From: Eledone cirrhosa
Taxonomy: Eukaryota
DNA: 64,000 nt
Assembly: GCA_964016885.1 (NCBI GenBank)
Contig: OZ024742.1
Location: 368,466,001-368,530,000, forward strand
Reading direction: 5' to 3'
Shown: positions 9,001 through 61,470 of the stretch, piece by piece
How positions within the stretch are numbered: position 1 is the stretch's first letter
How the letters are laid out: every line of letters starts with the position of its first letter
Notes under the pieces: model-generated
What the model saw: only the letters and a program-made list of their open reading frames with translations
Database searches by the model: none
What the model was told of the DNA's origin: nothing
Program-made: the position numbers and the translations under genes

Positions 9001-12000
9001 ACCAATACTACAACCACTACTACCATCACTACCAATACTACAACCACTACTACCATCACTACCAATACTACAACCACTATTACCATCACTACCAATACTA
9101 CAACCACTACTACCATCACTACCAATACTACAACCACTACTACCATCACTACCAATACTACAACCACTACTACCATCACTACCAATACTACAACCACTAC
9201 TACCATCACTACCAATACTACAACCACTATTACCATCACTACCAATACTACAACCACTACTACCATCACTACCAATACTACAACCACTACTACCATCACT
9301 ACCAATACTACAACCACTACTACCATCACTACCAATACTACAGCCACTACTACCATCACTACCAATACTACAGCCACTACCATCACTACCACTACTACCA
9401 TCACTACCAATACTACAGCCACCACTACCATCACTACCAATACTACAGCCACTACTACCATCACTACCAATACTACAACCACCACTCCCATCACTACCAA
9501 TACTACAACCACTACTACCATCACTACCAATACTACAGCCACTACTACCATCACTACCAATACTACAACCACCACTCCCATCACTACCAATACTACAACC
9601 ACTACTACCACCACTACCAATACTACAACCACTACTACCATCACTACCAATACTACAACCACTACTACCATCACTACCCATACTACAGCCACTACTACCA
9701 TTACTACCAATACTACAACCACTACTACCATCACTACCAATACTACAACCACTACTACCATCACTACCAATACTACAGCCACTACTACCATCACTACCAA
9801 TACTACAACCACTACTACCATCACTACCAATACTACAGCCACTACCATCACTACCACTACTACCATCACTACCAATACTACAGCCACTACTACCATCACT
9901 ACCAATACTACAGCCACTACTACCATCACTACCAATACTACAGCCACTACTACCATCACTACCAATACTACAGCCACTACCATCACTACCACTACTACCA
10001 TCACTACCAATACTACAGCCACTACTACCATCACTACCAATACTACAGCCACTACCATCACTACCACTACTACCATCACTACCAATACTACAACCACTAC
10101 TACCATCACTACCAATACTACAACCACTACTACCATCACTACCAATACTACAACCACTACTACCATCACTACCAATACTACAACCACTACTACCATCACT
10201 ACCAATACTACAACCACTATTACCATCACTACCAATACTACAACCACTACTACCATCACTACCAATACTACAACCACTACTACCATCACTACCAATACTA
10301 CAGCCACTACTACCATCACTACCAATACTACAGCCACTACCATCACTACCACTACTACCATCACTACCAATACTACAGCCACTACTACCATCACTACCAA
10401 TACTACAACCACCACTCCCATCACTACCAATACTACAACCACTACTACCATCACTACCAATACTACAGCCACTACTACCATCACTACCAATACTACAACC
10501 ACCACTCCCATCACTACCAATACTACAACCACTACTACCATCACTACCAATACTACAACCACTACTACCATCACTACCCATACTACAGCCACTACTACCA
10601 TTACTACCAATACTACAACCACTACTACCGTCACTACCAATACTACAACCACTACTACCATCACTACCAATACTTCCAATACTACAGCCACTACTACCAT
10701 CACTACCACTACTACCAATACTACAGCCACCACTCCCATCACTACCAATACTACCAATACTACAGCCACCACTCCCATCACTACCATTACTACCAATACT
10801 ACAACCACTACTACCATCACTACCACTACTACCAATACTACAGCCCCACTCCCATCACTACCACTACTACCAATACTACAGCCACCACTCCCATCACTAC
10901 CATTACTACCAATACTACAGCCACTACTACCATCACTACCACTACTACCATCACTACCAATACTACAACCACTACTACCATCACTACCAATACTACAACC
11001 ACCACTACCACCACTACCAATACTACAGCCACTATTACCATCACTACCAATACTACAACCTCTACTACCATCACTACCAATACTACTACCACTACCATCA
11101 CTACCAATACTACAACCACTACTACCATCACTACCAATACTACAACCACTACTACCATCACTACCAATACTACAACCACTACTACCATCACTACCAATAC
11201 TACAACCACCACTCCCATCACTACCAATACTACAACCACTACTACCATCACTACCAATACTACAACCACTACTACCATCACTACCAATACTACTACCACT
11301 ACTACCATCACTACCAATACTACAGCCACTACTACCGTCACTACCAATACTACAACCACTACTACCATCACTACCAATACTACTACTACCACTACCATCA
11401 CTACCTATACTACAGCCACTACTACCATCACTCTCAATACTACAACCCCTACTACCATCACTACCAATACTACAACCCCTACTACCATCACTACCAATAC
11501 TACAACCCCTACTACCATCACTACCAATACTACAACCACTACTACCATCACTACCAATACTACTACTACCACTACAATCACTACCAATACTACTACTACC
11601 ACCACTACCAATACTACAACCACTACTACCGTCCCTACCAATACTACAACCACTACTACCATCACTACCTATACTACAGCCACTACTACCATCACTACCA
11701 ATACTACAACCCCTACTACCATCACTACCAATACTACAACCACTACTACCACCACTACCAATACTGCAACCACTACTACCGTCCCTACCAATACTACAAC
11801 AACTACTACCATCACTACCTATACTACAGCCACTACTACCATCACTACCAATACTACAACCACTACTACCACCACTACCAATACTACAACCACTACTACC
11901 GTCACTACCAATACTACTACTACCATCACTACCAATACTACAACCACTACTACCATCACTACCAATACTACAACCCCTACTACCATCACTACCAATACTA

Positions 12001-15000
12001 CAACCACTACTACCTTCACTACCAATACTACAACCACCACTACCATCACTACCAATACTACAACCACTACTACCATCACTACCAATACTACAACCACTAC
12101 TACCTTCACTACCAATACTACAGCCACTATTACCATCACTACCAATACTACTACCACTACTACCATCACTACCAATACTACAACCACTACTACCATCACT
12201 ACCAATACTACAACTACTACTACCATCACTACCAATACTACAACCACTACTACCTTCACTACCAATACTACAACCACTACTACCTTCACTACCAATACTA
12301 CAACCACTACTACCATCACTACCAATACTACAACCACTACTACCATCACTACCAATACTACAACCACCACTACCATCACTACCAATACTACAGCCACTAC
12401 TACCATCACTACCAATACTACAACCACTACTACCTTCACTACCAATACTACAACCACTACTACCTTCACTACCAATACTACAACCACTACTACCTTCACT
12501 ACCAATACTACAGCCACCACTACCATCACTACCAATACTACAACCACTACTACCATCACTACCAATACTACAGCCACCACTACCATCACTACCAATACTA
12601 CTACCACCACTACCATCACTACCAATACTACAACCACTACTACCATCACTACCAATACTACAACCACTACTACCATCACTACCAATACTACAACCACTAC
12701 TACCGTCCCTACCAATACTACTACCACTACTAACACCACTACCAATACTACAGCCACTACTACCATCACTACCAATACTACAGCCACTACTACCATCACT
12801 ACCAATACTACAACCACCACTACCATCACTACCAATACTACAGCCACTACTACCATCACTACCAATACTACAACCACCACTACCATCACTACCAATACTA
12901 CTACCACTACTACCATCACTACCAATACTACAGCCACTACCATCACTACCAATACTACAGCCACTACTACCATCACTACCAATACTACAACCACCACTAC
13001 CATCACTACCAATACTACTACCACTACTACCATCACTACCAATACTACAGCCACTACCATCACTACCAATACTACTACCACTACTACCATCACTACCAAT
13101 ACTACAACCACCACTACCATCACTACCAATACTACAGCCACTACTACCATCACTACCAATACTACAACCACTACTACCATCACTACCAATACTACAACCA
13201 CCACTACCATCACTACCAATACTACAGCCACCACTACCATCACTACCAATACTACAGCCACCACTACCATCACTACCAATACTACAACCACCACTACCAT
13301 CACTACCAATACTACAGCCACCACTACCATCACTACCAATACTACAACCACTACTACCATCACTACCAATACTACAACCACCACTACCATCACTACCAAT
13401 ACTACAGCCACCACTACCATCACTACCAATACTACAACCACCACTACCATCACTACCAATACTACAACCACCACTACCATCACTACCAATACTACAACCA
13501 CCACTACCATCACTACCAATACTACAGCCACCACTACCATCACTACCAATACTACAACCACCACTACCATCACTACCAATACTACAACCACTACTACCAT
13601 CACTACCAATACTACAACCACCACTACCATCACTACCAATACTACAGCCACTACTACCATCACTACCAATACTACAACCACCACTACCATCACTACCAAT
13701 ACTACAGCCACCACTACCATCACTACCAATACTACAGCCACCACTACCATCACTACCAATACTACAGCCACTACTACCATCACTACCAATACTACAGCCA
13801 CTACTACTATCACTACCAATACTACAACCACCACTACCATCACTACCAATACTACAACCACCACTACCACCACTACCCATGCTACAGCCACTACTACCTT
13901 CACTACCACTACTACAGCCACTACTACCATCACTACCAATACTACAGCCACTACTACCATCACTACCAATACTACTACCACTACTACCACCACTACCAAT
14001 ACTACAGCCACTACTACCATCACTACCGATACTACATCCACTACTACCATCACTACCAATACTACAGCCACTACTACCATCACTACCAATACTACAACCA
14101 CCACTACCATTACTACCGATACTACAACCACCACTACCATCACTACCAATACTACAACCACTACTACCATCACTACCAATACTACAACCACTACTACCAT
14201 CACAACCAATACTACAACCACTACTACCATCACTACCAATACTACAACCACTACTACCATCACTACCAATACTACAACCACTACTACCATCACTACCAAT
14301 ACTACAGCCACTACTACCATCACTACCAATACTACAACCACTACTACCATCACTACCAATACTACAACCACTACTACCATCACTACCAATACTACAACCA
14401 CTACTACCATCACTACCAATACTACAACCACCACTACCATCACTACCAGTACTACAGCCACTACTACCATCACTACCAATACTACAACCACTACTACCAT
14501 CACTACCAATACTACAACCACTACTACCATCACAACCAATACTACAACCACTACTACCATCACTACCAATACTACAACCACTACTACCATCACAACCAAT
14601 ACTACAACCACTACTACCATCACTACCAATACTACAACCACTACTACCATCACAACCAATACTACAACCACCACTACCATCACTACCAATACTACAGCCA
14701 CTACTACCATCACTACCAATACTACAACCACTACTACCATCACTACCAATACTACTACCACTACTACCATCACTACCAATACTACAGCCACTACTACCAT
14801 CACTACCAATACTACAACCACTACTACCATCACTACCAATACTACAACCACTACTACCATCACAACCAATACTACAACCACTACTACCATCACTACCAAT
14901 ACTACAACCACTACTACCATCACAACCAATACTACAACCACCACTACCATCACTACCAATACTACAACTACTACTACCATCACAACCAATACTACAACCA

Positions 15001-17950
15001 CTACTACCATCACTACCAATACTACAACCACCACTACCATCACTACCAATACTACAACTACTACTACCATCACTACCAATACTACAACCACTACTACCAT
15101 CACTACCAATACTACAACCACCACTACCATCACTACCAATACTACAACTACTACTACCATCACTACCAATACTACAACCACTACTAACATCACTACCAAT
15201 ACTACAACCACCACTACCATCACTACCAATACTACAACTACTACTACCATCACTACCAATACTACAACCACCACTACCATCACTACCAATACTACAGCCA
15301 CTACTACCATCACTACCAATACTACAGCCACTACTACCATCACTACCAATACTACAACCACTACTACCATCACTACCAATACTACAACCACTACTACCAC
15401 CACTACCCATACTACAACCACTACTACCATCACTACCAATACTACAACCACTACTACCATCACTACCAATACTACAACCACTACTACCATCACAACCAAT
15501 ACTACAGCCACTACTACCATCACTACCAATACTACAGCCACTACTACCATCACTACCAATACTACAACCACTACTACCATCACTACCAATACTACAACCA
15601 CTACTACCACCACTACCCATACTACAACCACTACTACCATCACTACCAATACTACAACCACTACTACCATCACAACCAATACTACAGCCACTACTACCAT
15701 CACTACCAATACTACAGCCACTACTACCATCACTACCAATACTACAGCCACTACTACCATCACTACTAATACTACTACCACTACTACCACCACTACCAAT
15801 ACTACAACCACTACTACCATCACTACCAATACTACAACCACTACTACCATCACTACCAATACTACAACCACTACTACCATCACTACTAATACTACTACCA
15901 CTACTACCACCACTACCAATACTACAACCACTACTACCATCACAACCAATACTACAGCCACTACTACCATCACTACCAATACTACAACCACTACTACCAT
16001 CACAACCAATACTACAGCCACTACTACCATCACTACCAATACTACAGCCACTACTACCATCACTACCAATACTACAACCACCACTACCATCACTACCAAT
16101 ACTACAACCACTACTACCACCACTACCAATACTACAACCACTACTACCATCACTGCCCATACTACAACCACTACTACCATCACTACCAATACTACAACCA
16201 CTACTACCATCACTACCAATACTACAGCCACTACTACCATCACTACCAATACTACAACCACTACTACCATCACTACCAATACTACAACCACTACTACCAT
16301 CACTACCAATACTACAACCACTACTACCACCACTACCCATACTACAACCACTACTACCATCACTACCAATACTACAACCACTACTACCATCACTACCAAT
16401 ACTACAGCCACTACTACCACCACTACCCATACTACAACCACTACTACCGTCACTACCAATACTACAACCACTACTACCATCACTACCAATACTACAACCA
16501 CCACTACCATCACTACCAATACTACAGCCACTACTACCATCACTACTAATACTACTACCACTACTACCACCACTACCAATACTACAACCACTACTACCAT
16601 CACTACCAATACTACAACCACTACTACCATCACTACCAATACTACAACCACTACTACCATCACTGCCAATACTACAACCACTACTACCATCACTACCAAT
16701 ACTACAGCCACTACTACCATCACTGCCAATACTACAACCACCACTACCACCACTACCAATACTACAGCCACTACTACCATCACTACCAATACTACAGCCA
16801 CTACTACCATCACTACCAATACTACAACCACCACTACCATCACTACCAATACTACAGCCACTACTACCATCACTACTAATACTACTACCACTACTACCAC
16901 CACTACCAATACTACAACCACTACTACCATCACTACCAATACTACAACCACTACTACCATCACTACCAATACTACAACCACTACTACCATCACTACCAAT
17001 ACTACAGCCACTACTACCATCACTACCAATACTACAACCACTACTACCATCACTACCAATACTACAACCACTACTACCACCACTACCAATACTACAACCA
17101 CTACTACCATCACTACCAATACTACAACCACTACTACCATCACTACCAATACTACAACCACTACTACCATCACTACCAATACTACAACCACTACTACCAT
17201 CACTACCAATACTACAACCACTACTACCATCACTACCAATACTACAGCCACTACTACCATCACTACCAATACTACAGCCACTACTACCATCACTACCAAT
17301 ACTACAACCACTACTACCATCACTACCAATACTACAACCACTACTACCACCACTACCAATACTACAGCCACTACTACCGTCACTACCAATACTACAACCA
17401 CTACTACCATCACTACCAATACTACAACCACTACTACCATCACTACCAATACTACAACCACTACTACCACCACTACCAATACTACAGCCACTACTACCGT
17501 CACTACCAATACTACAACCACTACTACCATCACTACCAATACTACAACCACTACTACCGTCACTACCAATACTACAACCACTACTACCATCACTACCAAT
17601 ACTACAGCCACTACTACCGTCACTACCAATACTACAACCACTACTACCATCACTACCAATACTACAACCACTACTACCGTCACTACCAATACTACAACCA
17701 CTACTACCGTCACTACCAATACTACAGCCACTACTACCGTCACTACCAATACTACAGCCACTACTACCATCACTACCAATACTACAACCACTACTACCAC
17801 CACTACCAATACTACAGCCACTACTACCATCACTACCAATACTACAACCACTACTACCACCACTACCCATACAACTACCACTACTACCATCACTACCAAT
17901 ACTACAACCACTACTACCACCGCTACCCATACTACAACCACTACTACTAC
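1..17950. repeat. 30-bp tandem satellite (ACTACCAATACTACAACCACTACTACCATC), ~600 copies, truncated by window start
   Basis: Period of 30 is directly visible. Most indels are multiples of 3. All long ORF-track entries here (LQPLLPSLPI, GSDGSSGCSI, poly-V) are translations of this unit. Confidence 0.97.
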
Positions 17951-18777: not shown

Positions 18778-19835
18778 CGGGTGGGTGCTCTACTACCACC
18801 CCTTATTGTGACACGGGTGGGTGCTCTACTACCACCCCTTATTGTGCCACGGGTGGGTGCTCTACTACCACCCCTTATTGTGACACGGGTGGGTGCTCTA
18901 TTACCACCCGTTATTGTGACACGGGTGGGTGCTCTACTACCACCCCTTATTGTGACACGGATGGGTGCTCTACTACCACCCGTTATTGTGACACGGGTGG
19001 GTGCTCTACTACCACCCCTTATTGTGACACGGGTGGGTGCTCTACTACCACCCCTTATTGTGACACAGGTCGGTGCTCTACTACCACCCGTTATTGTGAC
19101 ACGGGTGGGTGCTCTACTACCACCCCTTATTGTGACACGGGTGGGTGCTCTACTACCACCCCTTATTGTGACACGGGTGGGTGCTCTACTACCACCCGTT
19201 ATTGTGTCACGGGTAGGTGCTCTACTACCACCCCTTATTGTGACACGGGTGGGTGCTCTACTACCACCCCTTATTGTGACACGGGTGGGTGCTCTACTAC
19301 CACCCGTTATTGTGACACGGGTGGGTGCTCTACTACCACCCCTTATTGTGACACGGGTGGGTGCTCTACTACCACCCCTTATTGTGACACAGGTCGGTGC
19401 TCTACTACCACCCGTTATTGTGACACGGGTGGGTGCTCTACTACCACCCCTTATTGTGACACGGGTGGGTGCTCTACTACCACCCCTTATTGTGACACGG
19501 GTGGGTGCTCTACTACCACCCGTTATTGTGTCACGGGTAGGTGCTCTACTACCACCCCTTATTGTGACACGGGTGGGTGCTCTACTACCACCCGTTATTG
19601 TGACACGGGTGGGTGCTTTACTACCACCCGTTATTGTGACACGGGTGGGTGCTCTACTACCACCCCTTATTGTGACACGGGTGGGTGCTCTACTACCACC
19701 CGTTATTCTGACACGGGTGGGTGCTCTACTACCACCCCTTATTGTGACACGGGTGGGTGCTCTACTACCACCCCTTATTGTGACACGGGTGGGGCACCAC
19801 TGCCACCCGTAGTAGTGACACGGGTGGGGCACCAC
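18778..19835 (+). repeat. 36-bp GC-rich minisatellite (GTGACACGGGTGGGTGCTCTACTACCACCCCTTATT), ~29 copies
   Basis: Directly visible tandem unit; translates as a 12-residue period. Confidence 0.95.
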
Positions 19836-19939
19836 TACCTCCTCTTAAAAAGACCACTAATACTACCACCACTACTACTACTTTACATATCTCGACATAG
19901 CAGAGTATTTTATGTATGAGGATTGCATGGTGTAGAGAG

Positions 19940-21189: not shown

Positions 21190-21236
21190 TATTTTATCTG
21201 ATGAGTGCGTACCCATGAAATATATATAATAAAATA
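21190..21236 (+). ncRNA. Minimal type I hammerhead ribozyme motif
   Basis: Stem I TATTTTAT/ATAAAATA, core CTGATGA (21198-21204), stem II GTG/CAT, GAAA, palindromic stem III ATATATAT, AUA cleavage triplet ending at 21228. Confidence 0.65.
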
Positions 21237-21287
21237 AATATGGTTTTATAAAGATAGCTTCCATTTATTAATATTATTGATCTAATT

Positions 21288-27292: not shown

Positions 27293-27445
27293 CCCCACTC
27301 TCCCCTCTCTCTCTGTCCCCCACTCTCCCCTCTCTCTACACCATGCAATCCTCATACATAAAATACTCTGCTATGTCGAGCTATGTAAAGTAGTAGTAGT
27401 GGTGGTAGTATTAGTGGTCTTTTTAAGAGGTAGTGGTGCCCCACC
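26880..27445 (-). repeat. Inverted copy of 19813-20930 (unique spacer + GA + TG block)
   Basis: 27340-27440 is the reverse complement of 19820-19935, and 27190-27260 of 20080-20150. Confidence 0.9.
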
Positions 27446-29346
27446 CGTGGCACAATAACGGGTGGTAGTAGAGCACCCACCCGTGTCACAATAACGGGTG
27501 GTAGTAGAGCACCCACCCGTGGCACAATAACGGGTGGTAGTAGAGCACCCACCCGTGGCACAATAACGGGTGGTAGTAGAGCACCCACCCGTGCACTATA
27601 ACGGGTGGTAGTAGAGCACCCACCCGTGCACTATAACGGGTGGTAGTAGAGCACCCACCCGTGTCACAATAAGGGGTGGTAGTAGAGAACCCACCCGTGT
27701 CACAATAACGGGTGGTAGTAGAGCACCCACCCGTGTCACAATAAGGGGTGGAAGTAGAGCACCCACCCGTGGCACAATAACGGGTGGTAGTAGAGCACCC
27801 ACCCGTGTCACAATAAGGGGTGGAAGTAGAGCACCCACCCGTGGCACAATAACGGGTGGTAGTAGAGAACCCACCCGTGTCACAATAAGGGGTGGTAGTA
27901 GAGCACCCACCCGTGTCACAATAAGGGGTGGTAGTAGAGAACCCACCCGTGTCACAATAACGGGTGGTAGTAGAGCACCCACCCGTGTCACAATGAGGGG
28001 TGGAAGTAGAGCACCCACCCGTGGCACAATAACGGGTGGTAGTAGAGAACCCACCCGTGTCACAATAACGGGTGGTAGTAGAGAACCCACCCGTGTCACA
28101 ATAACGGGTGGTAGTAGAGCACCCACCCGTGTCACAATAAGGGGTGGTAGTAGAGAACCCACCCGTGTCACAATAAGGGGTGGTAGTAGAGAACCCACCC
28201 GTGTCACAATAACGGGTGGTAGTAGAGCACCCACCCGTGTCACAATAAGGGGTGGTAGTAGAGCACCCACCCGTGTCACAATAAGGGGTGGTAGTAGAGC
28301 ACCCACCCGTGTCACAATAAGGGGTGGAAGTAGAGCACCCACCCGTGACACAATAAGGGGTGGTAGTAGAGCACCCACCCGTGTCACAATAACGGGTGGT
28401 AGTAGAGAACCCACCCGTGCACTATAACGGGTGGTAGTAGAGAACCCACCCGTGCACTATAACGGGTGGTAGTAGAGCACCCACCCGTGTCACAATAACG
28501 GGTGGTAGTAGAGAACCCACCCGTGCACTATAACGGGTGGTAGTAGAGCACCCACCCGTGTCACAATAACGGGTGGTAGTAGAGAACCCACCCGTGGCAC
28601 AATAAGGGGTGGTAGTAGAGAACCCACCCGTGCACTATAACGGGTGGTAGTAGAGAACCCACCCGTGCACTATAACGGGTGGTAGTAGAGCACCCACCCG
28701 TGGCACAATAACGGGTGGTAGTAGAACCCCGACCAGTGTCTCAATTAAGGGTGGCAGTAGAGCCCCCACCCGTGTCACAATAACGGGTGGTAGTGGTTCC
28801 CCACCCGTGTCTCAATAACGGGTGGTAGTGGGTCCCCAAACTTGTCACAATAAGGGGTGGTAGTAGAGCCCCCACCCGTGTCACTATAACTGGTGGTAGT
28901 AGAACCGCCACCCATGTCACAATATGGGGTGGCAGTGGTGCCCCACCCGTGTCACAATAAGAGGTGGCAGTAGAGCCCCCACCCGTGTCACAATAACGGG
29001 TGTTAGTCGTTCCCCACCCGTGTCACAATAACGGGTGCTAGTGGTTCCCCACCCGTGTCACAATAACGGGTGGTAGTGGTGCCCCACTCGTGTCACAATA
29101 ACGGGTGGAAGTAGAGCACGCAACCGTGTCACAATAACGGGTCGTAGTGGTGACCCAACCCGTGTCACAATAAGGGGTGGCAGTGGTGCCCCACCCGTGT
29201 CACAATAAGGGGTGGCATGGTGCCCCACCCGTGTCACGATAAGAGGTGGCAGTGGTGCCGCACCCCTGTCACAATAACGGGTGGTGGTAGAGCCCCCACC
29301 CGTGTCACAATAAGGGGTTGGTAGTAGAGCCCCCACCCGTGTCACA
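27430..29346 (-). repeat. 36-bp minisatellite, inverted orientation, ~53 copies, degenerate beyond ~28720
   Basis: Reverse complement of the 18778-19835 unit. Confidence 0.95.
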
Positions 29347-29347
29347 A

Positions 29348-29505
29348 AACGCCATGTTTTGACGCGAAGTGTTACGGCCCTTTCCATTCTGAGTTCAAAT
29401 CCTGCCGATGTTAACTTTGCCTTTCATCTTTACAGGGTGGATAAAATAAAGTACCAGTAATGCACTGGGATAATTGCTGGCCTTGTCCCAAAAGTAGGAA
29501 CAATT
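29348..29505 (+). mobile_element. tRNA-derived SINE (family B), 5'-truncated
   Basis: gagttcaaatcctgccgatgttaactttgcctttcatc...aaataaagtaccag. Confidence 0.8.
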
Positions 29506-29854: not shown

Positions 29855-29941
<87 letters not shown>

Positions 29942-30067
29942 CATACAGAAAACGCCAACATCAACAGTTTTGCAAGAGATGTCAACTTGAATGGACAGGT
30001 TATTTTTATCTAAAGACATTTTTCCAATTCCAACCTGTCCCTTCAATCTATCTTATTTCTCATTCTT

Positions 30068-30103
30068 TCTTCTGATGAAGGATTAGCGTCCGAAACGTTG
30101 AGA
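30068..30103 (+). ncRNA. Minimal type I hammerhead ribozyme motif
   Basis: Stem I TCTT/GAGA, core CTGATGA (30072-30078), stem II GGA/TCC, GAAA, palindromic AACGTT, GUU triplet. It lies in a ~250-bp unique block between (TA)n runs. Confidence 0.6.
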
Positions 30104-30180
30104 CCCTCTTCCTGCTATTTTAAGCGTTAACCTAATATATTCCTTCCATATACTGTACCGATTGTGTTGTTATTTCTCTT

Positions 30181-30253
<73 letters not shown>

Positions 30254-30339
30254 TATATGAAGTAATTCCATCGGAAAAGTCCAGGAAAAAAGAGTGCTCT
30301 ATGTAGGCAACAGAGCTTAATTATTATTATTATGTAATA

Positions 30340-30710
30340 AACAACATAAGGCAATTATTCCATTTACCAGTGGTTTCTTAAAAGCAAAAGGTTTTGCTTT
30401 CAATCCTCAGAATGAAAAAATCCTGGTTTGTTTATTGAATTTGGATTATAAAAACAAAAATGCAATCTATATGAAAGTGAGGCTGGAGAAGGGAGAAGGA
30501 AAGGAAAAATAAAATAAAACTACACATGCAAACACACACACAAAAAAACACAAAAGCATACTTACACACACATACATATATACATATATATATGCACGCA
30601 TACATATATACATATACACATATATATAAAACGTACACTTACATACACATATATACACACATATACACATACATACATTAATACATATACACACACACAC
30701 ACACACGCAT

Positions 30711-30747
<37 letters not shown>

Positions 30748-31152
30748 CATATACACACATACACATACACACACATACACATGTGTGTGTACAAGCATAC
30801 ACATACACAAACATAGCCATACACACACACATATATATACACATACATACATTCACACAAACATACAAAACGTACATACATACATGAATGCACTCCTCTA
30901 CATATTCACACACGCAAATAAATATAAGAAAAAAATATATATATATATATATTAAAAAATTTTTGACACCGATACATGACCCAGCTAACAGGACAGACAC
31001 GCGTGGTAAGTAATACACACAAAAGCACGTATATATAGTAGTAAAGTAATAAAGCAACATAAGGCAATTATTCCATTCACCAGAGGTTTCTTAAAAGCAA
31101 AAAATGTTTCCTTCAATCTTCAGAATGAAAAAAATGAAAAAAACCTGGTTTA
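30340..31152 (+). repeat. Direct repeat pair (~90 bp; 30340-30430 and 31055-31152)
   Basis: aacataaggcaattattccatt.accag.ggtttcttaaaagcaaaa...cagaatgaaaaaa...cctggttt occurs twice. Confidence 0.8.
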
Positions 31153-31207
31153 TCCACATATACATACATATACACACACAAATATACATATATATACACA
31201 TACACAT

Positions 31208-31284
<77 letters not shown>

Positions 31285-31531
31285 CATATATACACATACA
31301 TATATATACATATATATATACACACAAAGGTATGTGAAGGGCAAAAAAATGTCTTATATATATATATATATATATAAGCAAGATGTATGGTAGGTCGTAT
31401 GTGAATCGCGATGATCACGTCTGACCTACCAAATATGCGACGGTAGCTAGTTAAGCTCTATGCGTATAAGCAGAGCAGAAATATTAATGAAAAAGAACAA
31501 AGGAACTATTATGACATTATAACAAGTTTAT

Positions 31532-31578
31532 TGCCGACAGCCGTTTCGTCCGACCACATGGTGGGACATTTCAAGGCA
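31532..31578 (-). ncRNA. Hammerhead-like motif with variant core, followed by AATAAA
   Basis: Minus strand: TGCC-TTGAAAT-GTCC(caccatgtggtc)GGAC-GAAA-CGGCT-GTC-GGCA-ATAAA. The stems and GUC triplet are present, but the core deviates from CUGANGA. Confidence 0.55.
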
Positions 31579-32310
31579 TATAACATTTGATTGTAAGTTC
31601 ATTATTTACATCAACGTATCACTTAAGACTAGCAGTTTGAAATTGTGGTATACATCAGCAGCTCCGCTTGTATATTTGGGATCTATATTCTAAGGGGGCT
31701 CTTTTATATTAGTTGTCGGAATTGTAAATGGGATGGGTTATGGGGAGTTAAGAGAATTTGAAAATGGCCTGAGAGTCAAGGATTGAAGGTTAAAAATTAG
31801 ATAATTTATAATTTACGCATTAAAAGTAAAAGACTTGGGATCTCATAGAAGCACCTTAAAAAATCCCTCAATAAGTGCATAAAGCTTACAAGCCCCAATA
31901 AACTTAACAAACTAGAAGAGATTAAGAGACTAATAAAATAAAATAAAATAAAAAAATAAAGATATAAAGTTTCCCTAAAAAAATATAAAGTTTCCCAAGA
32001 AGTTCCCTCGAGAGAAAAAAATTTCTTTCGAAAGAAAAAAAAAAAACTTTCTTCCCCAGAGATCTCGTTAAAAAATTTTCGGAAAATTTACGAAGTTTTG
32101 ATAATCTCTACTAAGTTGAAAGAAACTAATCAATTAAAGGTTAATTCAAAAAGCCTTCAATAAACCCCTCAGAAAAGGCCCCTTTAATATTTTTAATAGG
32201 AACCTCCTCCGAGAGACCCTTCGAAGAATTAAAATTTTAGAGACCCTTTAAGGATATATATAAACGAATTGAGGAAAATTATAAATTAAAAGTTAAAAAT
32301 TACGGGGGAA

Positions 32311-33388
32311 GAAAAATGCGTACAGCAAAAAAATATAATATTGTTGGAATATAAACCTTTAAAAATACAGGACAAGAAACTAAAATAAAACTTTAAAAGA
32401 ATAGGACAAGAAACTAAGATAAAACTTTAAAAGAATAGGACAAAAAACTAAGATAAAACTTTAAAGAATTGGATAAGAAATAAAAAATTTTACAATAATA
32501 TTAGTGGCAAAATTTTTATTGGTAAAAAATCGAGTTCCACATTCATAGGCTCTGGGTTCCACATTCAGAGGTCGTCGTCAGACCGGGGGATCATTTTATC
32601 CTGGTTTGAACACCAATTGGGCCATAACCATACCCCTATTTCATCATTCGGCGACACGCCTCATGTGTCATGCATAATGTGAATGGACCCATGGGCCCAT
32701 GAGCACAGATCTTGAGCAGCAGCGGACGGTCTTGTCATCCCGCTCATCCTTGATCTTGACCAACCCGTCCATCTTCTCCTTGCATCTTGTCCTTGAGTTC
32801 AAGTCCGGCAGTCTAGATGAATGCGTGCCACAGCTTTCTGGTACAGGAAGGGGGAGCAGGAGGACTGGAGGGATGACGGGACAGAGGTAGGGAGGACCGG
32901 TGGTTGAGGGAGGTGCCGTAGTCGGTGGTCAGAGTCGACATCTTGTCCCGGTCGTCTTCTCCATCTTCGTCTGGTGTTGCGGGACCAGAAGTGCATTCTT
33001 GGAGGAGACCTGCAGCTGCATCGGCCAATTCTTCTTGCAATGGTCATTCTGACGGAGCAGAACTGCTCAGCCAACCAACCCCAACCAGAACCAACCGCTC
33101 AGGGGCAACGCACAATGAGAGCATGACAATTATTATGCACTAATCAAGAAGATACTGGAGCATAGCACAGGAAACGAATAAAAAAATGTTGTCACTAATA
33201 TTATTGTAAAATTTTTTATTTCTTGTCCAATTCTTTAAAGTTTTATCTTAGTTTCTTGTCCTATTCTTTTAAAGTTTTATCTTAGTTTCTTGTCCTATTC
33301 TTTTAAAGTTTTATTTTAGTTTCTTGTCCTGTATTTTTAAAGGTTTATATTCCAACAATATTACTTTTTTTTGCTGTACGCATTTTTC
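32311..33388. repeat. Fold-back element: ~210-bp inverted repeats (32311-32521 / 33177-33388), each with ~34-bp subrepeats, enclosing a GC-rich spacer
   Basis: The arms are reverse complements. The subrepeat ggacaagaaactaagataaaactttaaaagaata occurs 3-4 times per arm. Confidence 0.9.
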
Positions 33389-34209
33389 TATCTGGTCTAC
33401 TATTTTTTAAGGCAATGCAAGCAACAACTATCTAATAATTAAATTATCATAGTGAATTACTGACAAGTGATTGACATTTTAAAGTTCTTTTGAGTATAAT
33501 TGCAATCTAGTTGAGGCAACTGGCTTAATGACAAAGCTAGTAAATCATGAATGCATTTGAGATGATTAGTGCATAAAAGTGAATTGGTGAAACTTGTGCA
33601 TTTCAATGGTGTTACAACAATAGATGTAAGTTATATAGTAGTAATACTTTATCATTTTAACTTTTTAGAATGGACAAAAACCCATGCAAATAAATTACTT
33701 TGACTGCAGTGGTTCTCTCCAATTTACTTACAAAGCAAAACGTGGTCAAATACTTTATCATCTCTGATAAAATGCCCATTGAATCACATTGAATCGGATG
33801 CATGGAATTCCTCATAAAATGCACCTATGAATCGGAAGCCATCACATATATCAATGGATATAGGGAGTTGTTCACACTGGAAGACCATCACTTCATTTGT
33901 GACTTCATCAGTTATCTCCACAATTGTCTCAGACACCCAATGCCATTGATGAGAGGTGATCCAATGTGTGAGCATGTAACTAATCTTATAGAAGTTGTTA
34001 TCGACCACCTAGCTTTTAGTGACATTTGACTGATTTGACTGATAATGATGTATTTTTAAAAAGTATGTGTACATTCTTGTTACTATTTTAAGGCAATGCA
34101 AGCAAGAACTATTTAATAAAATTTAAATTTAAAAATGACCATTGTGCATTACTAGTATGATGACATTTTATTAAGTCACAAAATTAGTCAGTCAGCCATA
34201 GAACAAGGA

Positions 34210-34963
34210 TCAGGTGGCAAAAACATTGGCAAAAATTTGTGTCAATTTAAGATTTCCAACATTGTTCAAATGAATCATATCTGGTTTGAAGTCAGATTTG
34301 TCAAATTTTGACCAATTTTCAATGTTGTGAAGATTGGGTAAGTTCAATTTTTGAATCATTTCTTTCATGCAGTAATTAAACTTTTCCAAACGAGAATTTC
34401 TCTTGCCCAAGTCATTTTTATTTTCAATTACACTTTGTGGACGTGGAATGACACCACTGTAGAAAATGGGTGTACAGTGGTGCTTTTCCGCTATTTTCTG
34501 TAGCCTTGCAAAGAGACTCTTCCCCTGTTTTTCCGGTTTTGTGCCTCGAATGGGCACTTTGTCCTTAATTTACAAATAAATGATTAATAAAAAATACTTG
34601 GGCAAAAATGATTGTATTACTTTGCACAGCTTTGTAGTGCCAACGATGCGACGAGTATTCAGATCATTAGAGCCGAAATGAACCACCAATACTTTCACAA
34701 AAGGACAACAGATAACAATGTTGGCGATTAACATTACCTGGCCCTGACGGGCCCCAGGTATACAAAATATCTAAGTATTTTTGTTGGTATGATAAGTAAA
34801 TACATTTGAATTAATATTTTTATACCTTCTGATCATTCGATTTCGCCACATTTCTAATTATGGATTTGTAAAAACTGGCATGAATGTGAATTTGATCAGT
34901 CCAATTGCCCGATTTTAGTGAAAAGTTTTGATTCGAAATGGAAATACTCCATTTCCGTGCCAT
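34210..34963 (-). CDS. Three-exon SGNH/GDSL-type hydrolase (esterase), 213 aa; exons 34963-34826, 34770-34621, 34563-34210
   Basis: Manual splicing at two phase-0 GT-AG introns (55 and 57 nt) gives an open frame from ATG to stop. The SGNH blocks are in order: (YK)SIIRNV, FCIPGAR, VVHFGSNDL, IFYSGVIPRP, DMIHLNNVG. Confidence 0.75.
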
Positions 34964-36199
34964 GGAAAAAATGAATAAGCCGATCAAAAGCCGCGAAACA
35001 TCATTTTTAATTAAGCGAAATTAGTGGATGCAAATCTCAGAAAATATTGTACACTATTCGCACCTATCGCACTATTCGCACCTATCGGTACAAAAATATA
35101 GCGCACTATTCGCACCTATCGGTACAAAAAATCGCACGACTCTTAATAATACTAGAAGTGCAAACTATCTGTTGAATACCTGGTATATGAAGAGCAACCG
35201 ATACGATCGGTCGGCGATCGGTCTTGAAGAAGAATGAAGAATGAAGTGAAATTTTGGTCTGGTTGTTGTCATCGGTGTTTCGCAGAGATGCCGGCACGAA
35301 TAAAGGTGTCAGTGACACAAAGTTGTCCGCTTGAACAAAGGTGTCGGTCCGACAAAGGTGTCAGTCAGACAGACAGTCAGACAGTGTCACAGTCGGTGCG
35401 ACAAAGCGATCGATGCGATAAAAAATGTTTAACTCACATGTTTACCTATATTTTCGCAACTATTGATAGATTGGTACAAAAAATAGCTTTGATAATAAAC
35501 ATAAATTTTTAACGAAGTATTTAAAAAGCATTTTAGCAGTGAAAAGTGAAGTAATGTTTCACACTGACGCAAGTAGGGCCGTTCAGAAATGACGTAGTCA
35601 ATTAGGAGGAGGGGATTCGGCGATTTGACTACATTTGACTAACGTAATCACACTCACAAGAGTTCCGCCGAAAAAAATTCGTCATTTCTGGATTACCTCC
35701 CCTAGCGTCACGCTTACTACTCACTCACTTGAACACAAGATTTATCAGCAAACTTTGATTATAAACTTTTTCCCGCTGGACCAAATTTCTAGATTTTTAA
35801 GCCAAAAGATGCGTAATGATCTACTGTTCATGCTCATATAAGTTTTATCTCAGTTAAATAAAGTAGAGCCGCGCTGTACTGTCGTAAACAGACGATTGCC
35901 AACGAAAACACGACCACAACAATATTACTAAACGGACTACCGTCCGTTTAGGATGAAATAAATATGTTTTATAAATATAGTTTCCATTTGTTAATATCGT
36001 ATATCTACTCCAAATATTTGTCGAGTGCTTTATATCAGTTATAAAAATATTTACTTGCTGTATCCCAACAATTTAAATAGAACTTTTGCATATATATATA
36101 TATATATATAATATATATATATAAAGGAACGATCGACTTTCGTCAAATCGGACCGAGGAAACAATGCTTCCGTTGGTTATTCCAATTGCTAATACTATC

Positions 36200-44186: not shown

Positions 44187-47100
44187 CTATAGTCTGATGT
44201 AGAGTGAAGGCCCATTCACACGGGCCATTCTCGCCACTTTCACCCATCTTTCATAGAAACGGCTGGGCTGCAGCACCTCTCTCTCCATCCTGATCCTTCT
44301 TCCGAAATGATATCGGAAGAAACGGACCAGTTGTTGGCCAGAGAGAAAGGTGCCCGACCTCAGTCCTTTCAGACGCGTCCACCATACAACCTCTTTCGCC
44401 ATGGCTATTACGCACAGAAACACCGCCTCTGCTTCATCTTTGAAGGGGGGAGGCGGCTTGATCATTACAATAGACTCGGTGGTCAACCGGATCGGTCCCA
44501 CCCTTGACAGCAGTTGTTCGACATAGCCCCACAGATCGGCTACGCCCGAGCAGTGTACTAATGCGTGTGCAACGGTTTCCTCGTCGCACACGCATCTGGG
44601 ACAGATCTTTTTGGCGGGGTCCCTACCCGGGCGCCCGTGTCTGTAGAGCCTTTCTCGAACGGGTAAAGCCCCTCGGTAGCACTGCCAGGCCAGGGACTTC
44701 TGGAAGTTGTCCATAGGTCCCGGGCTGAATGTCCTACCGAACAGGCTGGCCAGTTCGTCCTCCTCCATGTCTAGGGCTTCTCCGAGGGCGTCGTCGCACC
44801 TGCTGCGCACCAGCCCTCTATAGAATGTTGCGGTGGAGTCTCCACTGATAACCGGATCCGCCTGCCAGAGGGCGGTGAGCGCCTGGGCACACTCAGTGTG
44901 CCAGGCGCCCAGTTTTCTCGGTCTTTGCTTGACCCAGGATTGCAGCTCGGTGAGTGAGACGAGTCTGGGAAAGGTTCGTCTCACAAACGAGGCCCACACC
45001 GGTTGTCCGGTGAGGAATACGTAGAGGTGCCGTAGCCTTAATGCGTGTTTACGCATCATTAGCCACGGCATCCCCAGCCCTCCTTTCGAAGGGTGTTGAC
45101 AGCAGATGGATCTCCTCACCATAGGAGCCCGCCTCTTCCAAAGGAATTGGAAGAGCGCGCGCTCCATCTTGGTGAGGGTTTCCCTTGGGCAGGGCACTAC
45201 GGTCAGGCGGTAGTAGATGACGGACGCTATGTAGGTGTTCGCCACCTCCGCCCGACCTTTCAGGGATAGTTTGCAACTGGCCCACTTCTGGGTCAGTGCA
45301 AACACCCTGTTCGTAACCTCCGCCCAGTTTTTCTCCACCTGGAGGTCCGGTCCGAACCAGACCCCGAGCAACTTCACCGGGCCCTCCGTCCAGCGTCCGA
45401 CGACGCTATCGGAGGGCATCGGTCTGCCCCTCCACGTGCCGAGTTGCAAACCGATCGACTTGTCCCGGTTCAGCTTAGCCCCTGTGAACTTTTCGTACTC
45501 CTCCAGTAAGGTGCCGACCGCCTCGATTTCGGAGGCCGTCGACACCATTACTGTCACGTCATCGGCGTAGGCCGACACCGCTTTCCGCAATCCCGGTTCC
45601 AAAGGGATGCCCTGCAACAACTCCAACTTCCGCAGTAGTGGCTCGAGAGTCAACACATACAGAAGGGAGGAGAGAGGGCACCCTTGTCGGATGGACCGCG
45701 CGATTTTGAACGGCTCCGAGAGGTAGCCGTTCACCTTGACCCTGGAGCAGATGCGGCTGCTGTGCATAGCAGTGATCCAGCCCCTGAAAACGGGTCCGAA
45801 GCCTGCCGCCGCTAGCACCGCATCCAGGTAACCATGGTCGACCCTATCGAACGCCTTAGATTGATCCAAGTTGATCAGAGCCCCACCAAAGCCGGGTTCG
45901 TTCCCAACCCTCTCTATGATGTATCGCATGAGGTGGAGGTTGTCATGGATGGACCTGGACGGGATAGCGCATGTCTGCGCATCTCCCACCAGGTTGCCCA
46001 CGACAAGCGCCAACCTCTTTGCTAGCACCTTGGCCAAAATCTGTAACTCTGTATTTAGCAGTGTTATGGGCCTGAAGTTACTTATTTCGTCCCCCTTGTT
46101 CTCGTCCTTCCTCACTAGCGTGACTACGCCCTTGGTCACAGTACAGGGAATTCTCCCGTTCTGTTGCCAGTTGCAGTAGACCGCCTCGAGGAGATCGGGG
46201 AACAAGTCCGGCATAGCTAGATATAATTCGTAAGGAAGACCATCGAGACCCGGGGATTTGCGTTTGCCGCATTGGCTCAGCACGTCCTCTATCTCAGCGG
46301 CCGAAATCGGCTCCTCGCAGGACTTCGCCTCCCTGTCCGAGAGGCGCGGCAGGCCGTCGAGGTATGGACCGAAGTCCACGTTCCCAACCGGCTCCCCGCC
46401 CCTCCCGAACAGTCGGGCAAAGTGCCTTTGAAAGGCCTCACACATCTGCTTAGGCTCAAGAATCGCCCGTCCATCCAGGTCTTGCAAAGACCGGATGGTG
46501 GATTTAGTTCCACTGTTGGCCTCTGTCACGCGGGCCCAGCTAACAGCTTTGGTCCCCTCGTTCCCTAGAGCACGTATTTTACTTCGGACAACGCAGCCTT
46601 CGTGCTTCGCGTCGAAAAACTGGCTCAAAGCCGTTCTCGACGCTAGCACTCTGGCCACGTCGCCGCTTCTAATTGCCTCTTCTACTCTATCTATTAGCTC
46701 CCTTTCCTTCCTATTCCTATCCGCAGCTAGAACCTTACTAAATTCTATCGAGACTACTCTAATCTCTCTCTTTGGAGATACCCATCACCTGCTGTTGACG
46801 ATCGCTCCAGTCAACCGTTCCTTAACTAACGTACTAATCCGATTCCTGTAGGCTCTACTTGCCGGCAAGGACAAGTTGAGCTTCCAGTAACCGGGGCCCT
46901 GTCTATGAGTTCTGTCAAGGTTGACCATGCAGGTCACTAATTTGTGGTCTGAATAGCCAACAATGCGCATTTTTGGACAACTTAAAAAGTCCTTATCCTT
47001 AATTCTAACTAAGAACCTATCTAGGTACGACCTAGATGATCCGCTACGATTTGCCCAAGTCCAGGTTGGCGCAGTCGGAAAATCTAGTCGATATCTATCG

Positions 47101-47624
47101 GCCAGGTCAAATCGACCGATTAACCCTTTGAGGCTATTACACCCCTCTCTATCGGGGCAGGCCCCTACGTAGTCCCAGCGTGCATCTAGGATACCATTCC
47201 AGTCCTCCACTAATAGCAAGGAGCGGGACGTCCCTAGAAAAGTCTCCAGACGATGGAAGAAGTCCGGCCGCATTGACCCGAAAGGGCCGTAGGCGGCTAC
47301 CAACCTAAACGCTCCGCCTTTACCACTGCCAAGGTCCAGAACCACTAGTCGACCCTCCGGGTACAAATGTACCATCTGTGTTGCGAGACCCAGATGTTTT
47401 TGCAGCAGAACGACAACTCCACCCCCACCTCCGGGCTGACAGAGAGATGCGTGCATCTCAAAGTCATCAAAGGTGGGGGCCAGCTGTCGCACGTTGCTGA
47501 TCCGGGCCTCGCAAATAACCATCACATCTATACGTTGTGACCTGAGGTCATTTAGAAGCATTGCTTGCTTCCAAGTTGAGCCCAGGCCACGCGCATTTAA
47601 ACAGCCTACTCTTAGCATAGCCAT
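44187..47624 (-). pseudogene. ORF2: APE endonuclease + reverse transcriptase, one in-frame TGA at 46785-46787
   Basis: CLNARGL, DWN, YLDRFLV and YSDH (APE); KSPGLDG, NFRPITLLN, LDQSKAFDRV, RQGCPLS and AYADD (RT); CPRC...ETVAHALVHC. The two ORF-track pieces are in the same frame. Confidence 0.93.
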
Positions 47625-47648
47625 GTTGGTGGTGAAGAGAAAAGGCAC

Positions 47649-49437
47649 TTACCTCTCTGCGTCCCGGGTATCGGGCTGCACAATTTCCATTAGGGTGGGG
47701 GATGGGTTGTTGGGTGGGGTGGTGGTTTGTGGAAGTGTGTGGGCATCAGTGTGTTGTGTGGTTGGGGAGCTTGGAGTTGTGAGGGTGTTTGGGGAGGGGG
47801 TGGGATAGTTTTTTAGGAGGACGCGGTTAATGGGCCCGACGCAGGGGGGACCCACGTCCTCTTTAAAATTGTTTTTTAAAGTTTTATAGGTGTCCTGTGG
47901 GGCCTTAATCATTTTGAGGTGGGGGAAATCCCCTGCCTGGGTGAAGTTAGGCCCTTGTGTTTTTATTAGATTGTTGTTGTACACAATGTTTAACAGTTTT
48001 TTGTTTCTTGTATTTATGTATGTGTATGCATGTTTTTGTTTTTGTGTGGTGTTTTTTGTTTGCTGTTGTGAGCTCTTTTGTGTTGGTGTCAGTGTTATGT
48101 TTTGGGGAGGGGTTTTTTTCATTTGTGTGTCTGAGGTGTGTTTTCTTTTTTTTCTTTTGATTGTGTGGAAGTGCTCCTCCTCGTCTGACGACGAACTAGG
48201 GTCATCTTCCGCGTTGGAGGGGAGGGGTATATTTTCGGGTTGTGTTTGCGGTACGGGTGTTTCGGAAATTGTTTTTGTTTTTTGAGTGGAGGGGATGGGT
48301 CGGACATTGTTTTGTTTTGGTTTGAGCTGTGGTGGTTGTTTTTGTAGTGGTAGTTGTGGTGATTGTGTTGGTTGTGCAGTTGTTGGTGGTGTAGGCAGGA
48401 TTGGGGTTTTCTTATTAAGTTGGGGACAGACAGCCCTCAGGTGACCTCTGGTTCCGCAGAGGTAACACGAGGGCCGTCTACCCTCAACGGTAATGTTGAT
48501 GAAGGTTAGATCATCCAGTATGACGCGTTCAGGGATCTGGGCGATCCTTTCGGGCCTCATTTGAACTACAAGTTCGAGGCTCGTTCCACTGAACGCGTCA
48601 CCCGATGCCTTTCCCATGGACACCAGCATGTCATCCTCCAGGTCCAGAAAACCTGTCAAAACCCACCATATGTCCATAATCGGCAGGATGGTGTGGATTT
48701 TTATTTTTTGTGTTCTTCTACCCATGTACGTAGGGTAGAAGGTGTATGCGGTGGATGTGATTGGTTTGATGGACAGTTTCACTGCTGTGTCCCTGTCCTT
48801 CATGAGAATGGATAGACTCCCGTAGAGTCTATCCTTCTGAATGAAGGTGATGTCCTTCATGACGTCTTTTAAAACCAGCTCTATCTCGCTCTGTGATGGT
48901 TGAGCTGGTTTTTTACTTTTGTTCGAGATTGTCCTAAACATGACCGTGTTTAGGAGTCTCTGGCTTTTTAGTTCCGGGGGGGAATGGATTGTGAATGAAC
49001 CATTTTCCCCGTACACTATATATTTTTTCGCATCCGCCAGTAGCTCCTTCGCTTTTTGTTATATCTACTGGCAGATAGTCGAGGGTTTTCCTTGTCGTCT
49101 CGGCGAAGGAGAAATTTTGTTTGTTTGTGTTGTTGTTGTCGTTGGTGGTGTTGTTGTTATCATTGTTGTTGTTGTCACCGTTATTGGTCTTGTTGTTGTT
49201 ATTGTTATTGTTATTGGTGTTGTTTTCGTCCGTCGCATTGTTGTTGTTGTTGCTGTTGCTGCTGGTTCTTTGGGTTGTTGCCATGGCAACGTCAAGTTGT
49301 CGGTTAACAGGTGGAGAGAATTCTTCCTCTGGCTGACCTATCTTCTTGACCTCTGCTACTGTGACAGTGGCAGGGGGAAGCTGTAAGTTCATCTTCCCCT
49401 TTCCTCCTTCGAATTTTGGTGAAGAAGCTTCGGCCAT
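47649..49437 (-). pseudogene. ORF1 (gag-like, CCHC zinc knuckle), frameshift near 49020
   Basis: CYLCGTRGHLRAVC knuckle. The N-terminal part (MAEASS..., Asn-rich) is in a different frame. Confidence 0.85.
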
Positions 49438-50254: not shown

Positions 50255-51600
50255 ACATGCAATAGGGGCTAGTATCAAAACTACCCTAAAGGGCCACATA
50301 TTCAAGTTCAACGAGAAGATCTACACCCAAAATGAGGGAGCAGCCATTGGCGTCAGCATAGCTGGTGATGTTGCAAACCCTTTTATGGTATGGTGGGAAA
50401 GGAAACTTAAAGTTCTCCATAGACCTCATCATTTACTCTCGTTACGTAGACGATATCAATATAGTTATAAGAACACCCTCACTAGAGAGCACTAACAAGT
50501 TTGATTTAGAACGTAGCACAATGGAAAGCATCCAGCAGATAGCTAATTCCATACACCAGAGTATAACTGTAACTATCGACTACCCTTCCAAACACCCTAA
50601 CAATAGACTACCTGTATTAGACACGGAACTCTGGATTAACACTATAGACGAGAGAGCCCAAATTCTCCACTCACACTATGCTAAACCCATGGCCTCCAAA
50701 TACCTGATACTCAAAAACTCAGCAATGTCCAGTAGTGTTAAGTTTAATATTCTGATCGCAGATTTGGTACGAGTGATGAAGAATGTGTCCCGCATGTGCG
50801 ACCCAACAGAAATGGAAAGACACATCCAACACTTCATCAACCGCATGCAGTTCTCTAGCTAGAACCAAAGAGACAGAATCAGAGTATACGAAGGAGCCAT
50901 GGAGAAGTATAAGACCCTCATAGAACTGGACATGAAAGGAATTTTCCCACTATACAGCAGCAAATCCTGGAATAGCTTAGATAGGGCCAGACATAATATA
51001 GGGAAAGCCACCTCATGGTACGACAACCAGAGATACTAGAGTGTCATGTTTGTGGATGCTACCCCTGGAGGGAAATTAGCTTACCAGTGTAGAAAGGCCC
51101 TGAAAAAGACCCACTTAAAGGTTAAGGTGGTAGAAAAGCCAGGAACCACCATAAAATCCCTGATCAGCAAAACCTACCCTTTTAAGAAAACCCACTGTAC
51201 CAATAGGAAATGTATCATATGTAAGGTAAACCTCCGGATAAACTGTAAAACTAGAAACGTAGTCTATAGCATAAGATGTACAGAGGGTACTTGCAGAAAG
51301 ATGACAACAACATACATAGGCGAAACAGCTCGTAGCATAGGTGAAAGGATAGACCAACACTGGGGGGAATTAAAAGGACGAAAAAACGGGTCAGTACTAT
51401 ACGAACATGCCAGACAACAACACGACGGTAACATAGACAACATAGAAATTAGAATAATATCTAAACATAGAAATGACCCAGCAGATAGGCAAATCAGAGA
51501 GGCCAGTGAAATAGAACTTAGAAGGCCAAGACTAAACAGAAAGAATGAATGGAATAACAACAACACCCAAACAAACAACACTGACCTAAGAGAAGTATAA
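50255..51600 (+). pseudogene. PLE reverse transcriptase + C-terminal GIY-YIG endonuclease (frameshift and stops)
   Basis: FKFNEKIYTQNEGAAIG, YSRYVDDI, LPVLD, HYAKP; linker CTNRKCIIC; NVVYSIRC...YIGETARSIGERIDQH...REASEI...PRLN. Confidence 0.9.
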
Positions 51601-60111: not shown

Positions 60112-60199
60112 GAAGGGAAGAGTATAAAGGATAAAACTAAAAATAAAAATAACAACACAAGAGAGAGTTACCTTGGGAGAGATTTAATAGAAATGGGCC

Positions 60200-60653: not shown

Positions 60654-60804
60654 GTTAACAAGCGATGCAACAACGCACAACACACGCACACACACACACA
60701 CACACACACGCAAACGAGACAACTACACACATACACGCACACACACACAGTAGCATTCCACCATACGAACATACTACACTGCCAATACAGATGAACAAGG
60801 CAAC

Positions 60805-60857
<53 letters not shown>

Positions 60858-61385: not shown

Positions 61386-61470
<85 letters not shown>

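Follow-up and report, generated by a model that had tools for sequence, protein, structure and literature searches.

An intron-retaining, many-copy mobile element with an esterase-like gene and a probable hammerhead tail in Eledone cirrhosa, a candidate Penelope-type cargo retroelement

The window analysed here is a 64,000-nt stretch of the Eledone cirrhosa genome (assembly GCA_964016885.1, contig OZ024742.1, positions 368,466,001 to 368,530,000 of the forward strand). It contains a real mobile element that is young, present in many copies, carries an SGNH/GDSL esterase-like gene with its introns retained, and extends from position 31378 to beyond 35954. We put at about 0.55 the probability that the window copy (31378-35954) is a non-autonomous Penelope-type cargo retroelement that targets (TA)n and was moved in trans. 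Penelope-like elements (PLEs) favour (TA)n and other microsatellites and keep introns (PMC8557442), and hammerhead ribozymes are located in their terminal repeats (PMC6765202). The means by which PLEs keep introns and carry genes are not settled, and the cargo cases known so far come from rotifers and are low in copy number. No published description was found of an amplified esterase-carrying PLE derivative outside rotifers that lacks a reverse transcriptase (RT), although a curated Repbase or Dfam entry may exist.

Copy number was assessed from contigs of runs X1, X4, X5 and X6 that match the window (4 of 14 listed; three organism labels, two studies), with 8 contig records per run listed out of more than 85,000 pieces. 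Parts of the block were present in ten runs from six studies. Contig depth is not equal to copy number and is used only for ratios, and the uncovered parts of X5 (thin over 31684-32214) and X6 (10 of 30 bins empty, among them 31330-31506 and the greater part of the gene) are not counted as absence. In X1, depth was 560-584 over 34363-35650 and 1,247-1,262 over 33697-34392; diverged records that resemble single loci in the same run had depths of 6.2, 8.8, and 15.8. The preliminary description of this DNA, made from the window alone, had left room for a single-copy island, but by contig depth the block is a many-copy family.

Internally deleted forms of the element are also abundant. Two deletion joints were found in X1, one from 34392 to 35679 (depth 622) and the other from 33539 to 35680 (depth 643). 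The depths of 584 and 622 sum to 1,206 where 1,247-1,262 was seen, and addition of 643 gives 1,849 where 1,753-2,161 was seen. Together, the two joints and the additive depths indicate that the family consists of a long form and two internally shortened ones of similar abundance. The joint of the short form (33539 to 35680) occurs in three of the four runs (X1, X5, and X6, representing labels A, B, and C), with 255 letters on its shorter side in X5. Both deletion forms share the breakpoint at 35680, on the inner side of the 11-bp inverted repeat that closes a stable fold (z of -2.59 for 35555-35700). Splicing was rejected as the source of the deletions; their ends read GT..TT and AG..AT.

Identity of the element body to the window copy was 98.7-99.4% in the listed contigs of all four runs, and because the body is nearly identical across organism labels, the family is young. 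Gapless deep contigs cross both introns in X1, X4, and X5 (X6 has no cover there), and introns are retained in the multiplied DNA copies. Diverged sister sequence was seen in X1 contigs at 34870-35110 and 35799-35884 (depths 267 and 442), hinting at a second subfamily.

The esterase-like gene had been described previously as a spliced SGNH gene on the minus strand, and our analysis bears out a spliced, SGNH-like frame there. Its spliced frame of 642 nt has zero internal stops across two GT-AG introns, and the unspliced sequence reaches a stop after 47 amino acids (aa). GC content is 0.18-0.19 in the introns compared to 0.36-0.43 in the exons. SGNH blocks I, II, III, and V (Ser, Gly, Asn, and DxxH) are present in order in the spliced translation; block I reads Y-K-S instead of the canonical G-D-S with the serine kept, and is followed by PGAR, HFGSND, and DMIH. 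Pfam Lipase_GDSL_3 matched at E 0.004, which is below the cut-off, and the Atlas matches were two unnamed eukaryotic clusters (0.96 and 0.93) followed by GDSL clusters (0.92 and 0.91). Exons 2 and 3 were queried separately (a stop lies inside intron 2). Exon 2 had a single, weak match in PDB (4c1b, E 1.5), a protein encoded by open reading frame (ORF) 1 of what is presumably zebrafish ZfL2-1, and the alignment covers blocks II and III (CxPGAR and vvHxGxND). Support from Pfam, Atlas, and PDB for the putative SGNH identity is therefore weak but consistent. No exon 3 homologs passed in protein searches that included two large protein collections, and a single-sequence fold model of exon 3 had a mean pLDDT of 47. 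The sole metagenome locus match (L001) reads as the end of an unrelated aldo-keto reductase and was rejected.

If a host esterase gene had been multiplied by tandem or segmental duplication and the repeats beside it were incidental, it would also have introns and a polyA signal. Both major coding differences between copies (among the 40 of 240 rows listed) are synonymous, as expected for such a gene, and dispersal of the copies is not directly seen. This explanation is nevertheless very improbable: neither large protein collection yielded a homolog, the nearest relative of solved structure is the ORF1 protein of a retrotransposon (the weak match above), the amplified forms from which the gene is deleted reach the same depth as the full form, and the flanks are unrelated repeats. 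The esterase would be membrane or ribonucleoprotein cargo of the retroelement type and not a host gene.

Hammerhead ribozymes of PLEs are described as having a U3-A8 pair, a short helix I, and a long helix II (PMC4209133), with U3-A8 being a natural variant in these elements (PMC4209133; PMC3088659). On the minus strand, the block ends in a variant type I hammerhead, an AATAAA, and a terminal hairpin against (TA)n, and all of these previously noted parts were recovered (Table 1). The hammerhead has a 4-bp stem I, a 4+3-bp stem II, a GUC triplet, and a quasi-palindromic loop III of four bases that is self-complementary with G-U pairs. Its core shows U3-A8 covariation together with a departure at position 9 (alternatively, it is one base short in the A run). 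The descriptor was relaxed after the motif had been seen and is therefore fitted post hoc; in 500 order-2 Markov islands, it gave 49 with any relaxed match, nine with an equally good match, and none that also had AATAAA within 14 nt. Rfam made no hammerhead call on the island motif, and its matches were microsatellite noise. The hammerhead fold was unremarkable compared to shuffles (z -0.67), and the fold of the 143-nt tail had a z of -1.81, equalled by 11 of 200 shuffles. No match to the tail was found elsewhere in the window. Loop III is short and self-complementary, from which activity of the hammerhead is predicted in dimers only; in the window copy it may be dead.

Whether the tail belongs to the gene is central to identification of the element, and the two are probably linked. 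Depth at 31438 is close to that of the spacer between the fold-back arms in two runs (38.1 compared to 40.5 in X4, and 8.89 compared to 7.9-9.0 in X5), and X5 has a depth of 8.25 at 32261, to the left of the fold-back. X1 covers all 30 bins with a 3' excess (approximately 10,000 summed at 31438 and 31587), which fits 5' truncation. The block from 31378 to 35954 is uninterrupted by (TA)n. In the preliminary description, the block was proposed to be a mobilised PLE unit without RT. Many copies, retained introns, no RT in the part seen, and the tail depth match in two runs agree with this, but no listed contig bridges the tail and the gene.

Several observations weigh against a Penelope-type cargo element. 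No listed contig joins tail and gene, identity to the window copy is no higher than 86-93% in the four pieces listed left of 32300 (approximately 99% in the body), and there are 11-15 variant contigs left of 32100 compared to 1-3 in the body. In X4, depth at 31684-32214 is ten times that over the spacer, indicating that this part has other relatives, and at least the 3' kilobase is shared with older relatives. Hammerhead-bearing remnants are common in the window, so that a tail adjoining any given block is not rare; this weakens adjacency as evidence, although a PLE-rich (TA)n site fits. No description of the position-9 departure in the core was found. One locus was seen, and dispersal of the copies is inferred. 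Deletion series with both sides kept are also typical of DNA transposons.

The contrasts in identity and in variant contigs, with no contig bridging them, could also be explained by two neighbours: a young esterase-carrying DNA-transposon derivative (Mutator/foldback- or Helitron-like, approximately 32310-35954 and beyond) beside or inside an older Penelope tail (31378-32300). The 208-nt subrepeat arm begins at 32310, depth on the arm in X5 (67 at 32347) is more than twice that of the spacer, and fish Helitrons carry intron-containing SGNH genes (PMC4021074). We consider this explanation, the main rival, somewhat unlikely. Depth left of the arm matches the body at 32261 and 31438 in X5, with X4 giving the same match at 31438, the arm has no target-site duplication in the window flanks, and its partner is internal (ending at 33389). 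The 196 extra letters of the X4 contig were not listed as fitting the arm, and no transposase frame was found in the block. Mutator and foldback elements carry a long terminal inverted repeat on either end and a 9-11-bp duplication. In the part of the element up to 35954, the 208-nt arms are internal and lack a duplication, and the head is no inverted copy of the tail. If the two-neighbour explanation holds, the finding would be an unannotated esterase-carrying transposon of modest interest.

Movement of a single unit as DNA is another explanation, in which a Helitron or cut-and-paste element swallowed a Penelope tail near its end and has carried the ribozyme along as a passenger. Introns can be kept and two-ended deletion forms can arise without an RNA step, the hairpin lies 10 nt from the end, and the hammerhead core is imperfect. 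Helitrons end at the 3' side in CTRR after a short hairpin and encode Rep/Hel. The block has no CTRR at its 31378 end and no Rep/Hel frame (the far end lies beyond 35954), and its hairpin spans 44 nt and is not a short GC-rich stem. The 3' excess in X1 also argues against DNA movement, as does the ribozyme with AATAAA beside a (TA)n end, which is the arrangement of a PLE tail. This origin is quite improbable.

A Penelope-type origin with movement in trans would be consistent with a GIY-YIG PLE remnant in the same window (59440-60183) and has a precedent in Adineta, where PLEs are proposed to have moved an intron-containing gene in trans, with microhomology junctions, palindromes, and internal deletions (PMC3846280). 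By such a mechanism, transcription from the 5' module would yield an unspliced (or antisense) RNA that covers the gene array and reaches the tail, and the hammerhead would trim tandem or read-through RNA. The GIY-YIG/RT protein of an autonomous PLE would then recognise the tail, nick (TA)n, and prime cDNA. Synthesis of the window copy may have halted at the 35928-35951 hairpin and joined the neighbouring repeat via microhomology, and the shorter forms could stem from jumps of the template to the base of the structured segment (35680); these forms would be amplified because both ends are kept. The Penelope-like remnants at 50362-51600 and 59437-61200 are possible helper families, and their tails differ from the island tail.

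The element may represent a previously undescribed, RT-less, multi-gene Penelope cargo class outside rotifers that targets (TA)n and was recently active in several related species. Such a class would carry the spliced esterase together with other genes, flanked by a constant 5' module on one side and a hammerhead tail on the other, and would spread intron-containing genes through RNA as a chromosome-internal counterpart of Terminons. If so, the two-intron reporter and the three forms would allow the template (unspliced or antisense RNA), the cis ends needed, and the role of the ribozyme to be tested. It would also add a route of intron-preserving gene duplication in a (TA)n-rich animal genome and a further case of an esterase shared by unrelated mobile elements.

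Genes mobilised by PLE pseudo-long terminal repeats (pLTRs) in Adineta vaga are a close parallel. They include an RT-less, intron-containing gene with PLE termini for which trans movement was proposed, and they share microhomology junctions, palindromes, and internal deletions with the island (PMC3846280). They are one-off copies of host genes in matching pLTRs with target-site duplications (PMC3846280), whereas the island is an amplified family with deletion derivatives across three organism labels, a (TA)n target, and no pLTR pair in the window. Head and tail of the block share no repeat longer than 12 nt, no inverted copies, and no pLTR pair within the window (the true 5' end lies past 35954).

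Terminons and Athena elements of bdelloid rotifers have co-oriented accessory ORFs, including a GDSL/SGNH esterase, and a 3' hammerhead (PMC6431247, PMC5408684). The earlier comparison of the island to Terminons holds for the cargo and the 3' hammerhead, but the defining RT and telomere attachment are absent. The 3'-terminal 4.6 kb of the island has no RT, copies are many, and the tail adjoins (TA)n instead of a telomere; no reverse-complement telomeric repeat follows the ribozyme, and the island is not assigned to the Terminons. No RT match was found in the block 31378-35954, where the longest open frames are at most 119 aa.

Minimal hammerheads of metazoan PLEs and non-LTR (non-long terminal repeat) retrozymes resemble that of the island in their type I fold, short helix I, long helix II, U3-A8, and self-complementary loop III (PMC4209133; bioRxiv 10.64898/2026.07.22.740005). 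Non-LTR retrozymes are non-coding tandem units with one hammerhead each (bioRxiv 10.64898/2026.07.22.740005); the island, in contrast, is longer than 4.5 kb, carries a gene, is not tandem in the window, and has the additional core departure at position 9. The texim SGNH genes on fish Helitrons are likewise multicopy, intron-containing, related to CR1-type esterases, and transposon-mobilised (PMC4021074). Their exons number up to 15, and a Helitron coding region lies close by (PMC4021074); the island has three exons, lacks Rep/Hel, and ends in a PLE-type tail. The ORF1 esterase of CR1/L2/RTEX elements (PDB 4c1b) aligns as described above, but the island esterase is stand-alone and spliced, has Y-K-S for G-D-S, and has no downstream ORF2.

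The left end of the element at 31378 comes from the window copy, and loose contig ends at (TA)n were excluded. On the right, X4, X5, and X6 contigs cease matching at 35954 and run on for 196, 23, and 27 letters that are not listed on the window; the element extends past 35954 in other copies, and the window copy is cut short at its 5' end. The adjoining 35955-36089 belongs to a different family, with a summed depth of approximately 5e5 in X1 and 77% identity to 61641-61763. It is the 5' part of a high-copy unit and ends just before the ribozyme core, with a 3-nt shared junction next to the 10-bp hairpin. Related units lie at 61466-61750, where a hammerhead-bearing unit of 285 nt is flanked by (TA)n arrays, and at 21190-21275. 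In the high-copy unit of approximately 285 nt, stem I runs into a self-complementary arm of approximately 25 bp, which is retrozyme- or solo-pLTR-like. The preliminary description had taken the approximately 4.7 kb between (TA)n runs as one unit. A dinucleotide-free gap is present (31376-36090; 4,714 nt, second by length within the window), but the element does not fill it, and the (TA)n-to-(TA)n span is incidental.

Table 1. Coordinates of the element, its parts, and neighbouring repeats in the window
Feature	Position	Strand	Remarks
3' terminal segment	31378-31527	minus	past polyA signal, adjoining (TA)n
Terminal hairpin	31388-31431		9-bp stem; spans 44 nt, 10 nt from end
Variant type I hammerhead	31578-31532	minus	AATAAA directly after, 31532-31527
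AT-/homopolymer-rich 3' region	31579-32309		differs between copies: 11-15 variant contigs at listed sites
Left arm of 208-nt inverted repeat	32310-32517	plus	34-nt subrepeats
GC-rich spacer (0.52)	32518-33181	minus	decayed frame starting 33043
Right arm of inverted repeat	33182-33389	minus
Short intergenic direct repeat, copy 2	33398-33500		34-nt core, 94% identical to copy 1
Second short open frame, 74 aa	33784-34008	minus	between both direct repeats
Short intergenic direct repeat, copy 1	34081-34170		past esterase polyA signal
Esterase polyA signal AATAAA	34172-34167	minus
SGNH/GDSL esterase-like gene, three exons	34210-34963	minus	213 aa, spliced translation
Esterase exons	34963-34826, 34770-34621, 34563-34210	minus
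Esterase introns	34825-34771, 34620-34564	minus	55 and 57 nt, GT-AG
Short upstream repeats	35041-35130		18/34-nt period
Structured segment	35585-35690		closed by 11-bp inverted repeat, right arm from 35680
5' module	35680-35954		common to all three forms; ends in 10-bp hairpin 35928-35951
Fragment of separate high-copy (TA)n repeat	35955-36089	minus	hammerhead-bearing repeat, outside element
L1/Tx1-like element, near-complete	44187-49437	minus	ORF1, endonuclease, RT frames, by eye
Penelope-like remnant	50362-51600		ORFs read by eye
Gypsy-like remnant	54-56 kb		ORFs read by eye
Penelope-like remnant, partial tandem	59437-61200		by eye; GIY-YIG domain 59440-60183 above Pfam cut-off

Other parts of the block include the fold-back and the short upstream repeats, both of which were found as previously described. 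The fold-back arms are 97% complementary, with approximately four copies of the 34-mer per arm. In the spacer frame, the listed rows contain four differences from other copies, two synonymous and two giving stops in the window copy only; this pattern suggests a putative second gene, for which the protein search returned no homolog. The 74-aa frame had no match in profile or protein searches, and a PLAT-like appearance by eye was supported by no tool. At the end of this frame (33788-33791), other copies differ at four adjacent bases, and X4 depth falls there from 45 to 13. Along X4 as a whole, depth changes from 4 over the gene to approximately 400 at 31684-32214 and 38 past the AATAAA, a profile like that of a 3'-biased transcript with its end at the tail; the library type of this run is unrecorded, its size and irregular depth would be compatible with RNA, and it is not used to infer expression. 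No ORF was recognised in 31579-32309.

The window as a whole is AT-rich animal DNA that is dense in microsatellites and transposon remnants, and its longest dinucleotide-free gap is the one with the L1-like element (44-49 kb). The relaxed hammerhead scan detected four further convincing hammerheads (21198 and 30072 on the plus strand, and 30410 and 31123 on the minus strand), and a fifth core was found by eye at 61562. A scan match at 55277 lies inside a gypsy-like ORF and was taken as chance. A type I hammerhead unit is present in two minus-strand copies (30330-30440 and 31045-31160; 90% identity over 88 nt) with a microsatellite between them. These units have a canonical core, a 7-bp stem I, a long stem II, and the same orientation as the island tail; the copy at 31123 has the triplet GUG. 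A plus-strand piece of 250 nt at 29940-30185, flanked by (TA)n arrays, has a minimal hammerhead without loop III (core at 30072) and looks like a solo Penelope tail. Elsewhere, positions 1-17947 are an 18-kb array of a 30-nt unit in which a Thr-rich frame stays open for thousands of codons, either a satellite or a mucin-like exon. A 36-nt minisatellite forms two mutually inverted arrays (18778-19847 and 27429-29351) with similar flanks.

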